A stretch of DNA of 64,000 nt. It comes from a virus. The position numbers and the translations under genes are program-made. The notes below the pieces were generated by a model, which ran no database searches, was not told the origin of the DNA, and saw only the letters and a list, made by a program, of their open reading frames with translations. The stretch spans positions 1-64,000 of the IMG/VR virus record IMGVR_UViG_3300045988_129191; one strand, given 5' to 3'. Below are positions 40,760 to 42,001 of this stretch, piece after piece (positions within the stretch are counted from its first letter, which is position 1; each line of letters starts with the position of its first letter).

Positions 40760-42001
40760 ATGGCAAGAATAGAATATACAGGTAAGCCAATTCAAGCCTC
40801 TACTATTAAAGACTATTATAATAGATTAGACGCTATTAGAACTTGGAATGGTAGATATTCTGCTATTTCTAACCGAGGAAGTGTTGGCGCTGGTGTTAGA
40901 ATCACCAGCGCGCAAGTTATGAATGAAATTTTTAAAAGCGTTGTAGATACAAAAAATACTGTTTCATTCGTAAATGGCGTTTCAATTTTAGTTCCTATTG
41001 GAGTTACTCAAGGTAGTTCCGCAATCGGAAAGAAATCTATGGCTCAAATTGAAAAAAGCATTGGAATGATGGAACAAGCTTGTCGAGAATATTTTTCAAG
41101 TAAGCGTAATGGTTTTAATAGTTCTAATTATGGTATTTTTGGAAGTTTTAGTTCCAATAGATCTGGATTTAATGGTACTAATAGAACTTCTAATAATACA
41201 AGTTTTAATGTAATTGGTAATAATTCCAATAGAAGTGGATATTTTAACGGTCATAGACAAGGCTATTGTGGAGGTAATAGAACTACTAATAATGCTACTA
41301 ATAGAAGTGGTTATAACAATGCTTTTAGAAGTGGACATCATCATACTTTTAATAGCGGATTTTTTAGTACTAAATGGGCATCCAATGACGGTTCAAATTT
41401 TAGTGCTTTTGGAGATAATAGTGCTAAGTTTTCAAAAGTCCACAATGGTAATAAAAGTGGATTTGCAACTGGAAAATATCACCATCATTATTCTTATTGG
41501 GTATTTAATTGGGCTGGTAATGGAAGTAAAGATGTTCAATTAACAGGTAATGCTATTAAAAGAGGTAATTTTAATGGACATAATGCCTCTAAGTTTTCTG
41601 GAAATGGAAAAAATAGCACTAATAGAACTACTGTAAATCATGCCAATAGAAGTCCTTTCCATAAAGGTGGTTATACTGCAAATAATGATACTAAGTATAC
41701 AGGACATACAATAGGTTGTTCTGGAAATAATGATAGTCATTTTTCCAGTGTAGGTACTACATGCGTAGGAGATAATGCTTCTAATTATAATGGACATGCA
41801 ACTGGATATGCGGGCTTTTTTACTTCTAATTGTCCTGTTAATGATGCGGCAAATGATTCCAGCGTAAACACTTGTCCAAGTAATTACTCCGGAGTATTTA
41901 GTAGTAATTATCAATCTGTTTGTCCAAGTAATTTTAGTAATGTTGATAGAAAATGCTTTACAGTCCATAGTAGTTACACTGTAGAAGGCGTTGATTTTTA
42001 G
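40760..42001 (+). CDS. Low-complexity Asn/Ser/Gly/aromatic-rich protein with Cys-rich C-terminus; candidate substrate of the downstream radical-SAM/SPASM enzymes
   Basis: ~115-aa ordinary N-terminal domain, then repeated NRSG(F/Y)N and NRT motifs, His runs, C-terminal repeated CPSN(Y/F)S; RBS AGAGAGGTG; opposite-strand ORFs in the track are shadows. Confidence 0.6.
   Translation: MARIEYTGKPIQASTIKDYYNRLDAIRTWNGRYSAISNRGSVGAGVRITSAQVMNEIFKSVVDTKNTVSFVNGVSILVPIGVTQGSSAIGKKSMAQIEKSIGMMEQACREYFSSKRNGFNSSNYGIFGSFSSNRSGFNGTNRTSNNTSFNVIGNNSNRSGYFNGHRQGYCGGNRTTNNATNRSGYNNAFRSGHHHTFNSGFFSTKWASNDGSNFSAFGDNSAKFSKVHNGNKSGFATGKYHHHYSYWVFNWAGNGSKDVQLTGNAIKRGNFNGHNASKFSGNGKNSTNRTTVNHANRSPFHKGGYTANNDTKYTGHTIGCSGNNDSHFSSVGTTCVGDNASNYNGHATGYAGFFTSNCPVNDAANDSSVNTCPSNYSGVFSSNYQSVCPSNFSNVDRKCFTVHSSYTVEGVDF

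Follow-up and report, generated by a model that had tools for sequence, protein, structure and literature searches.

A phage-borne cassette pairs a low-complexity repeat protein, a putative protein-sized substrate, with two radical-SAM enzymes and a U32-type protein pair

Background

What use could a large phage have for a 413-residue protein, most of which is a repetitive string of Asn, Ser, Gly and aromatic residues, encoded immediately upstream of two radical S-adenosylmethionine (rSAM) enzymes? The question is raised by positions 1 to 64,000 of the IMG/VR virus record IMGVR_UViG_3300045988_129191 (the whole 64-kb stretch, hereafter the window), in which an open reading frame (ORF) for such a low-complexity protein, beginning with ATG, occupies positions 40760..42001 of the plus strand. 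A preliminary description made from the letters alone had noticed this frame, which is present exactly as described, and had proposed that its product is a protein-sized substrate of rSAM/SPASM enzymes, with cysteine thioethers as the favoured chemistry. We find that the first part of this proposal is supported by conserved gene order and that the emphasis on thioethers is not. We think that the repeat protein is probably a dedicated ribosomal substrate of the enzymes encoded next to it, a relationship that we infer from gene neighbourhood. Two further features were not part of the preliminary description: the cassette also encodes a conserved pair of U32-fold proteins, candidate Fe-S proteins, and it is carried by phages.

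Results

The evidence that carries this reading is gene order. The first rSAM gene (rSAM1) comes right after the repeat-protein gene in 20 of the 22 distinct contexts that we examined, and in the window two radical-SAM genes immediately succeed the repeat-protein gene, which bears out the tie to rSAM/SPASM enzymes that had been suspected; homologues lacking neighbouring rSAM genes, which had been named as the observation that would speak against the idea, were not seen among these contexts. The complete cassette reads, in order, small protein, repeat protein, rSAM1, rSAM2, acidic protein, a 263-aa protein and a 332-aa U32-fold protein. This full order is kept in the close clade of the window, in L004, L020 and L021, and in a contig of GCA_016648615, and wherever the available sequence suffices the rSAM/SPASM enzyme, the small acidic protein and the two four-Cys U32-fold proteins complete the set. 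In the short contigs L017 and L019 the N-terminus of rSAM1 comes immediately downstream of the repeat protein. A second approach, which started from the better-conserved U32-like protein (573 clusters) and used a six-frame scan, again placed a repeat ORF upstream of rSAM1 in L022, L023, L026, L028, L042/L043, L046, L050, L051, L052, L053 and L054, including contexts with rearranged gene orders (L022, L028, L046).

The two genes stay adjacent even where the repeat protein has fallen below 30% identity or has diverged beyond recognition. The repeat protein is about 25% identical in L004, L020, L021 and GCA_016648615 where its sequence is available, and between the window and L004/L020/L021 the enzymes are 43-53% identical whereas the repeat protein is just 25-27% identical. 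The combination of a recognition part that is conserved, a core that changes fast and maturases that are conserved is the signature of a precursor-maturase system. The surroundings differ widely. In the window the neighbours are a dUTPase and RuvC, in L004 and L042/L043 there is a tail-fibre gene, in GCA_016648615 a gene for an 1813-aa protein, and in L020 and L021 there are other genes. Because the cassette is kept amid such different neighbours, its seven genes behave as a mobile unit.

The repeat protein is itself the product of a real coding gene under purifying selection. A strong ribosome binding site, GAGAGGTG, is located 7 nt 5' of its start. Among 14 orthologous sequences the ratio of non-synonymous to synonymous substitution rates (dN/dS) is 0.23 in the N-terminal domain, 0.32 in the repeat body, 0.46 in the Cys-containing tail (the highest value, and thus the weakest constraint, of the gene) and 0.07 in the C-terminal 15 aa. 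Each of the 19 full-length close homologues (67-93% identity) has a length of exactly 413 aa, with zero indels; such a fixed length is unusual for low-complexity sequence and implies that register matters. Since dN/dS is 0.32 and no indel occurs in the 19 homologues, the repeat body is, we argue, not merely a disordered spacer. The preliminary description had further attributed to codon repetitiveness the three shadow ORFs (at least 60 aa) that it saw on both strands inside the gene. The ORF list confirms the frames (41096-41344 on the minus strand, 41214-41543 on the plus strand and 41540-41968 on the minus strand). Tandem Repeats Finder (TRF) returns just marginal 9-15-nt arrays in this gene, with scores of at most 41, and the repetitiveness is one of the protein level only. 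A recent origin of the repeats by DNA slippage was rejected, as TRF finds no tandem DNA repeat.

The protein begins with a conserved N-terminal domain of 115 residues (40760..41104), a candidate leader-like or recognition domain, for which AlphaFold2 (AF2), run on a 21-sequence alignment, predicts three helices (residues 13-29, 50-67 and 92-114) at a modest predicted local distance difference test score (pLDDT) of about 60; the division into a domain of some 115 aa and a repetitive body, already noted in the preliminary description, is also that of the family alignment. The mean pLDDT of the whole protein is 32, which makes the model unusable for the repeat body, and a Foldseek search of this low-confidence model against BFVD gave nothing meaningful. 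Residues 116-398 consist of 18.0% N, 14.5% S, 13.1% G, 8.1% F, 7.8% T, 4.9% H and 4.6% Y, so that aromatics and His make up 19% of the body.

Several of the short motifs in this body are far more frequent than composition alone would give, as judged against 2000 composition-preserving shuffles: NxS/T occurs 24 times (11.0 expected, 2.2-fold; reached in 0 of the 2000 shuffles), NR[ST] seven times (0.5 expected), NRSG[FYH] three times and HHH twice (0.0 expected for each), and CxxN/D six times (1.3 expected). These motifs, all of them listed before, are therefore real. The same cannot be said of the (F/Y)-N-x triads listed with them, since [FYWH]N is not enriched (11 against 9.5 expected) and [FYWH]xN is depleted (4 against 9.5); [FYWH]xS is mildly enriched (13 against 7.7). 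Nor are the aromatic residues spaced three apart, as the suggested triceptide context would have it: the real period is eight residues. The autocorrelation of Arg reaches +0.48 at lag 8 and is +0.31 at both lag 16 and lag 24, and that of aromatics and His taken together peaks at lags 4 and 8. The periodicity corresponds to degenerate octapeptide repeats of the form [Ar]-x-x-x-[N/F/H]-R-[S/T]-G, which span roughly residues 129-205 (41144..41374) and fade beyond.

Two conserved islands follow. The central one, KYHHHYSYWVFNW at residues 238-252 (41471..41515), corresponds to the family motif Ar-x-x-[F/Y]-H, reads KYHHHYSYWVF in the window protein, and is the sole conserved block within the repeat body across distant members. 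The second is an invariant C-terminal element, C-F-x-V-H-S-S-Y-T-V-E-G-V-D-F, which ends at the stop codon (41954..42001) and is seen both in the alignment and in the dN/dS values. Between them lies the Cys-containing tail, residues 320-399 (41717..41956), with CSGN, CVGD, CPVN, CPSN, CPSN and KCF. Cysteines occupy positions 108, 170, 320, 335, 358, 372, 388 and 399; seven had been counted in the tail, and there are indeed seven after the N-terminal domain, of which six belong to the tail itself.

A profile search of 1.8 billion representative proteins yields 39 members of this family, 58-668 aa long, most of the full-length ones measuring about 280-420 aa. No known family matches the repeat protein in Pfam, PHROG, NCBIfam and PADLOC scans, none of 26 family members matches any Pfam model, a profile search of Protein Data Bank (PDB) sequences with the family gives no match, and tblastn finds no homologue in 50,697 deposited phage genomes. 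Judged from these searches, the repeat proteins are an unannotated family, with no named or solved relative. In an alignment of 26 members, which are 23-30% identical to the window protein (a close one, P0019, is 67% identical), conservation is confined to residues 1-30, 61-70, 91-120, 241-250 and 391-413; R22, E98, E105 and C108 are invariant in the N-terminal domain, and the C-terminal element can still be read as VVHSxYxVEG[V/I/L]DF in most of the distant members. The family architecture is thus N-terminal domain, hypervariable repeat body, central Ar-x-x-[F/Y]-H island and C-terminal element, with precursors of 161-419 aa and cores from about 57 aa (in the 161-aa protein of L023) to about 300 aa. 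One member, in L028, is permuted, with the repeats first and the conserved domain C-terminal (a follower arrangement), and two carry a Laminin_G_3 domain at the N-terminus, which in P0048 precedes the N-terminal domain.

What the cores share is composition and a small motif, N-[F/Y/H/W]-[S/T], which is 2.7-fold enriched over shuffles across 27 members (NxS/T 1.7-fold, [ST]xN 1.55-fold, Ar-x-S/T 1.48-fold) and recurs in units of 4, 8 or 12 residues. The commonest unit is N-F-S-x, in which the third residue after Phe is often Gly, and lineages have repeat units of their own, such as FNSS, FRATNFTSNYSG, FSFPSSNF, TVHSxxN and NFSSFGNSGNC. Cysteine is not part of what is shared. Only C108, at the end of the N-terminal domain, is invariant family-wide, core Cys amounts to 0-1% in several members and is absent from P0057, and C388 is missing from most orthologues of 80-84% identity, even though the motifs CPSN and CSGN(N/D)D recur in P0022.

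Two further observations concern individual members. In P0048 (668 aa), besides the N-terminal LamG domain, the N-terminal domain appears to be split by an insertion of about 300 aa, its start motif (KTVTYKDK...INDFDGRLKSL) being found near residue 215 and the rest of the domain near residue 540. In-frame TAG codons occur inside repeat-protein and rSAM genes of L019 (273-2546), L026, L029, L050 and L052-L054, and the database protein P0048 reads Gln at the TAG positions of L019, which suggests TAG-to-Gln recoding in some cassette lineages. In the window itself, code 11 gives clean reading frames.

Which enzymes accompany the repeat protein? The genes described here and below as members of the cassette are all on the plus strand. 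rSAM1 (42028..43455, 475 aa) matches the Pfam model Radical_SAM PF04055 (1.5e-7; 32.2 bits, above the cut-off of 29.5) and also Fer4_12; its C-terminal half has only three conserved Cys (311, 329, 431) and is for this reason called twitch-like. rSAM2 (43452..44846, 464 aa), whose start overlaps the stop of rSAM1 by 4 nt, is a radical-SAM/SPASM enzyme with seven invariant C-terminal Cys (316, 334, 382, 385, 391, 395 and 414), including Cx2Cx5Cx3C, that is, a full SPASM set; it also matches phrog_1802 (1.9e-13). The cluster motifs CNLNCGYC (residues 22-29 of rSAM1) and CNQKCEYC (residues 33-40 of rSAM2) show no variation in the alignments.

Among NCBIfam models, the best matches of both enzymes are all to peptide maturases (GggB, PapB, YhhB, AmcB, DynA, QhpD, HxsB/C). 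Those of rSAM1 are to the sactionine synthase GggB (1.2e-15) and the ranthipeptide synthase PapB (4e-12), both below cut-off, and that of rSAM2 is to QhpD (3.5e-6). The hidden Markov model (HMM) scores fall 10-20-fold short of the curated cut-offs and, for the most part, concern just the generic rSAM core: QhpD scores 28.0 and 25.9 bits against 453, YhhB 36 against 445, GrrM 20.3 against 310, XyeB 19.1 against 450, FxsB 18.9 against 370, HxsB (with rSAM2) 19.2 against 370 (4.2e-4), HxsC (with rSAM1) 19.0 against 267.9 (5e-4), and the SPASM model TIGR04085 16.6 against 27. Because all of these matches fall far below the curated cut-offs, chemistry is not transferable from the named maturases. 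Single-sequence and profile searches of the PDB with the rSAM enzymes gave marginal matches only (the rSAM domain of ChlB, E 0.002-0.03), and tblastn with rSAM1 in the deposited phage genomes gave one weak match. Two other roles were considered and rejected: that of an NrdG-type activase, NrdG being a separate gene (see below), and that of a defence or anti-defence system, for which PADLOC shows just a generic viperin-type rSAM similarity.

The 332-aa protein (46302..47300) is a candidate Fe-S protein related to peptidase U32 and to UbiU-UbiV. Its AF2 model (pLDDT 91.8) has as its top PDB match in Foldseek the U32 peptidase Mk0906 (5d88, E=1.4e-7, probability 1.00), the following matches being at E 1e-3 or weaker, and on this predicted structure the protein has a U32 TIM-barrel fold. 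All of 65 sequences share four cysteines, C158, C189, C193 and C221. Pfam Peptidase_U32 (PF01136) does not match the window protein; 13 of 38 relatives match it at sub-threshold or marginal level (best 5.9e-6), three database relatives carry a precomputed PF01136 match, and one has from JGI the name 'collagenase-like PrtC family protease'. In the deposited phage genomes tblastn finds the protein in three unannotated faecal 'Bacteriophage sp.' contigs. The gene always adjoins that of the 263-aa protein (45524..46315), a distant paralogue with weak similarity at the N-terminus only and with invariant cysteines of its own (C179, C182, C188, C208). Most U32 proteins are now considered Fe-S enzymes of the UbiU-UbiV/RlhA/TrhP type (PMC6747719, PMC10990095). 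As a separate observation, L026 has two U32-like gene pairs about 8 kb apart (934-2678 and 9129-10882), of which the second alone adjoins repeat-protein and rSAM genes.

Two small proteins complete the cassette. The first (40371..40745, 124 aa), a candidate substrate-binding or chaperone partner, has a counterpart of 100-137 aa directly upstream of the repeat protein in L004, L005, L017, L020, L021, L022 and GCA_016648615; identity is 85% to L005 and 17-31% outside the close clade, and Pfam, PHROG, NCBIfam and PADLOC give no match. The second is an acidic protein of 227 aa (44809..45492), found at the same position in L004, L005, L020 and L021 (67% identity to L005, 17-25% outside the close clade), with no family match in Pfam and NCBIfam. 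The last gene of the operon (47371..47955, plus strand) lies outside the conserved cassette and encodes a 194-aa protein with an N-terminal hydrophobic segment and a coiled-coil-like rest, which occurs in the close clade only (L001, L005) and has weak coiled-coil-type matches. The operon has short gaps, overlapping starts, no internal terminator and, after this last gene, one strong bidirectional intrinsic terminator (47961..47987; a 12-bp stem with T runs on both strands) that closes both the operon and the convergent minus-strand block.

Glycosyltransferase genes accompany two of the loci. The rearranged cassette of L022 has a radical-SAM domain fused to a family 2 glycosyltransferase (GT2; 668 aa, 7825-9831), with a second GT2 gene after the cassette (16110-17162), and in L020 a GT8-like gene comes right after the cassette (16358-17032). 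These genes are hints that some cassette lineages add glycosylation.

The genomic setting is that of a large phage of anaerobic gut Bacillota, because the window carries a phage replication and nucleotide-metabolism module, orthologous IMG/VR contigs measure 117-196 kb, and the few cassette-bearing contigs of metagenome-assembled genomes were binned as Lachnospiraceae, Clostridia, Erysipelotrichia or Clostridium. The window, with about 31% G+C, contains no tRNA gene, and the orientation of its genes switches from plus to minus at about 47.96 kb. In PHROG and Pfam scans the module comprises PhoH, topoisomerase II subunits, an NAD-dependent ligase, DnaB helicase, primase, RecJ, a Dda-like helicase, a 1308-aa DNA polymerase of the PolIII-alpha type (39-41% identical to Enterococcus phage and SPbeta polymerases), NrdD, its activase NrdG (37645-38142, a separate gene and the other small rSAM protein of the phage), a dUTPase and a RuvC-like resolvase.

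Other features of the window may be mentioned briefly. The genes for the DNA polymerase (30254-34180) and NrdD (35208-37502) are uninterrupted here; their counterparts in sister phages have homing-endonuclease genes of the GIY-YIG, NUMOD3 or HNH type within or beside them (L001 1-2397 and 3461-6749; L005 1-3437), the NrdD of L001 being split by an HNH gene into 612 + 173 aa, and the window has a GIY-YIG endonuclease ORF of its own (16659-17651). In the middle of the replication module a 569-aa protein (5982-7691, plus strand) joins an endolysin-like N-terminal part (phrog_20388, 1.2e-38) to a domain of unknown function (phrog_14030, 7.4e-76). Just beyond the bidirectional terminator that closes the cassette operon, a 106-aa minus-strand ORF (47979-48299) has an IrrE/Peptidase_M78-like metallopeptidase motif (5.3e-6) and is found at the same place in L001, L002 and L005. 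Further on are three very large minus-strand ORFs, 51562-57708 (2048 aa), 58518-60641 (707 aa) and 60976-63960 (994 aa); the first two have no Pfam match (the PHROG scan covered the 707-aa one), and the third, possibly a host-binding protein, contains leucine-rich repeats of the BspA type (LRR_5, 3.9e-13).

Discussion

How might such a cassette work? From the evidence above we infer the following scheme for sites, chemistry and biological role, all of it conditional on the substrate relationship. The N-terminal domain would act as a very large leader or recognition domain that docks on the enzymes, probably with help from the central Ar-x-x-F-H island and the C-terminal strand, and the hypervariable body, rich in Asn, Ser, Thr, Gly and aromatics, would be the 'core', modified many times. 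Both rSAM enzymes would abstract hydrogen atoms from core residues, with side-chain cross-links (carbon-carbon or carbon-oxygen) or epimerised residues as the outcome, located in or beside the N-[F/Y/H/W]-[S/T] units. If UbiU-UbiV, RlhA and TrhP are a guide, the U32 pair may hydroxylate aromatic rings independently of O2; alternatively, its members may be processing peptidases. The product would be a heavily modified protein or set of peptides, made in an anaerobic gut Bacillota host and encoded late in an operon shared with nucleotide-metabolism genes, and it would probably be located on or with the virion, or else be released at lysis. Neither a signal peptide nor an exporter was detected in Pfam and NCBIfam scans, which fits a cytoplasmic product that is carried in the particle or released by lysis, and the placement by tail-fibre genes together with the LamG fusions is a hint of a virion or surface role. 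Possible chemistries are cross-linking, epimerisation and hydroxylation without O2; our confidence in any particular one is low, and a three-residue cyclophane logic is not evident.

Several points weigh against a substrate role. No modification has been observed, and what ties the protein to the enzymes is where their genes lie. With its 413 aa it exceeds classical RiPP (ribosomally synthesised and post-translationally modified peptide) precursors several-fold; Pfam, PHROG and NCBIfam reveal no recognisable RiPP recognition element (RRE)/PqqD domain, leader peptidase or exporter in the cassette, and neither rSAM enzyme has an N-terminal recognition domain ahead of the cluster motif with which it starts. 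The scores of the best-matching maturases are low (GggB 57.5 bits against a cut-off of 650, PapB 45.9 against 340), AF2 gives the repeat body, which may be a folded beta-solenoid or a disordered chain, no confident model (pLDDT about 23, from a shallow alignment), and the composition filter flagged no repeat ORF in two loci, L047 and L049. Finally, the cassette of the window sits amid nucleotide-metabolism genes, and RNA is the substrate of RlhA and TrhP, so that some of the enzymes may have a nucleic acid as their target.

This last point leads to the rival that survives best, although we consider it unlikely: the repeat protein would be an ordinary structural protein of the virion (a fibre, adhesin or decoration protein) and no substrate at all, the enzymes acting on DNA or RNA bases or on a small molecule. 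The cassette does follow a tail-fibre gene with a GAVWNDYAE-type C-terminus in L004 and L042/L043 and the 1813-aa protein in GCA_016648615, Laminin_G_3, present at the N-terminus of two members, is typical of phage surface proteins, and Asn/Ser/Gly-rich repeats are common in fibres; the nucleotide-metabolism setting in the window, and the fact that RlhA and TrhP hydroxylate RNA (PMC10990095), would suit nucleic-acid-directed enzymes. What this rival leaves unexplained is the exact position of the gene upstream of rSAM1 through rearrangements (L022, L028, L046) and in varied surroundings, and the rSAM enzymes resemble SPASM/twitch peptide maturases, not nucleic-acid rSAM enzymes, at the thresholds used. 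A structural role of the final product is, moreover, compatible with its being a substrate.

Indeed, the two ideas may be combined in a bolder version of the substrate reading, to which we give only slightly less credit than to the purely structural one: an anaerobic 'protein-tanning', in which the U32 pair would hydroxylate Phe, Tyr or His rings of the repeat body without O2 (prephenate-type) and the rSAM enzymes would then stitch these activated rings, dozens of times, to nearby Asn, Ser or Thr carbons, giving a densely cross-linked fibre or adhesive. Such a protease-proof product would be displayed on the virion or released with it, a location that fits the position beside tail-fibre genes and the LamG fusions, and the hypervariable repeats would be a diversifying host- or mucus-binding surface.

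The preliminary description had taken Cys next to Asn or Asp as the key context. If it were right, the conserved chemistry would be a thioether from Cys to Asn/Asp (or to C-alpha), of the sactipeptide, ranthipeptide or QhpC type, in the Cys tail; we find this improbable. The six occurrences of CxxN/D, the recurrence of CPSN and CSGN(N/D)D in P0022 and the identity of the best NCBIfam matches (GggB and PapB for rSAM1, QhpD for rSAM2) speak for it. Those matches concern the generic rSAM core only, at scores 10-20-fold below cut-off, the tail is the least constrained part of the gene, and core Cys is dispensable, being lost at position 388 within 80-84% identity and absent from the core of P0057, with C108 as the sole invariant Cys. 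Because the donor Cys is not conserved, thioether formation is not the conserved chemistry of the cassette; it could be a lineage-specific extra in the clade of the window. The idea of a protein-sized rSAM substrate does not depend on it, and stands on the synteny.

The enrichment of NxS/T (2.2-fold in the window protein, 1.7-fold in the family) and of N-Ar-S/T (2.7-fold) could also recall a glycosylation carrier, with Asn-, Ser- or Cys-linked sugars and with rSAM enzymes that tailor the glycans or their linkage. The rSAM-GT2 fusion and second GT2 of L022 and the GT8-like gene of L020 would agree with it. We nevertheless hold it to be very unlikely, as the cassettes of the window, L004, L021 and the GCA contig have no glycosyltransferase, and phage glycosyltransferases commonly serve DNA or host-surface modification. 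Least credible of all is an unmodified cohesive domain, FG-nucleoporin- or prion-like, that forms a condensate or gel next to merely co-regulated enzymes: F, Y and G in an N/S/T-rich context do resemble cohesive FG domains (with FGFGFNSSFNSS repeats in L022) and AF2 predicts no fixed structure, yet disordered spacers tolerate indels and the 19 full-length close homologues have none, the strict synteny with maturase-like enzymes would go unexplained, and the conserved central and C-terminal islands suggest specific contacts.

We return, then, to the repeat protein as a probable substrate. If it is modified, phages would encode an rSAM substrate that has the size of a protein and is modified many times, a new family of precursors equipped with a recognition domain of their own, and possibly the first U32 Fe-S enzymes acting on protein. 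RiPP-type chemistry would be extended to viral, apparently non-bacteriocin biology, and a way would open to study what large phages of gut anaerobes add to their particles or to the infected cells. Two uncharacterised rSAM activities on simple N-Ar-S/T repeats would also be attractive for peptide engineering, and we propose as rSAM substrate a synthetic peptide form of the repeat unit, (ATNFTSNYSGFR)n. With seven contiguous small genes, the cassette is experimentally tractable.

Comparison with known systems

In the literature that we searched we found no description of the present system, whether as a phage rSAM/RiPP cassette or as a U32-rSAM-RiPP combination. It is instructive to ask which known systems it recalls. 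The repeat-core rSAM RiPPs (the GrrM/OscB, XyeB and FxsB triceptides, WprB and the poly-cyclopropylglycine peptide; see PMC11851443, PMC9062424 and PMC11499958) have a precursor gene beside an rSAM/SPASM maturase, as here. Further likenesses are a recognition part joined to a variable, repeated core of aromatic and polar residues, the lack of an obligatory Cys, and weak HMM similarity. Their precursors measure 30-110 aa, whereas here they measure 280-420 aa and include a unique 115-aa helical N-terminal domain, and here two rSAM enzymes are always paired, are phage-borne, and come with no recognisable RRE, protease or exporter. The Omega-x-x logic of the triceptides is not evident in the present cores, in which [FYWH]xN is depleted.

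In the QhpC/QhpD/QhpG system, rSAM/SPASM thioether cross-linking at the level of a protein is combined with aromatic hydroxylation to give the quinone cofactor of quinohemoprotein amine dehydrogenase. The present cassette resembles it in having a (putative) protein substrate of an rSAM/SPASM enzyme and a separate candidate aromatic-hydroxylating enzyme, and QhpD is the best match of rSAM2, although at just 25.9 bits against the cut-off of 453. It differs in that there is no conserved Cys/Asp/Glu/Trp constellation and no dehydrogenase subunits, in that the core is repetitive and hypervariable, and in that the hydroxylase candidate is the U32 pair and not, as in Qhp, a flavoprotein. The His-Xaa-Ser (Hxs) system of TIGRFAMs/NCBIfam, which to our knowledge is experimentally uncharacterised, likewise has two different rSAM enzymes (HxsB and HxsC) beside a low-complexity, His/Ser-rich repeat protein; here the motif is N-Ar-S/T and not HxS, Hxs lacks the U32 proteins and the N-terminal domain, and the present system is found in phages.

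As to the U32 pair, UbiU-UbiV, a heterodimer of two 4Fe-4S proteins, is required to hydroxylate aromatic rings in an O2-independent, prephenate-dependent reaction (PMC6747719, PMC10990095). The likeness lies in the U32 TIM-barrel fold, in the four invariant Cys of each of two adjacent paralogues and in the anaerobic setting (NrdD/NrdG). The Cys spacing is different, being Cx30Cx3Cx27C and Cx2Cx5Cx19C here against CX6CX15CX3/4C (PMC6747719), and a protein side chain, the presumed substrate here, would be unprecedented for U32 proteins. The succession of aromatic hydroxylation and radical cross-linking on a ribosomal precursor has a parallel in biphenomycin-type pathways, where an oxidative enzyme dependent on multinuclear non-heme iron (MNIO) hydroxylates Phe to ortho-Tyr before radical-SAM cross-links are made (PMC12257519). 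That MNIO is O2-dependent and the precursor is short, whereas here the candidates would be U32 Fe-S proteins in the phage of an anaerobe.

In its design the cassette is thus like the repeat-core rSAM RiPPs, the maturation of QhpC and the Hxs system, and it falls outside the definition of each of them. What it adds to the rSAM/SPASM-modified ribosomal products, if our reading is correct, is a new precursor family, a pair of U32 proteins and carriage by phages.

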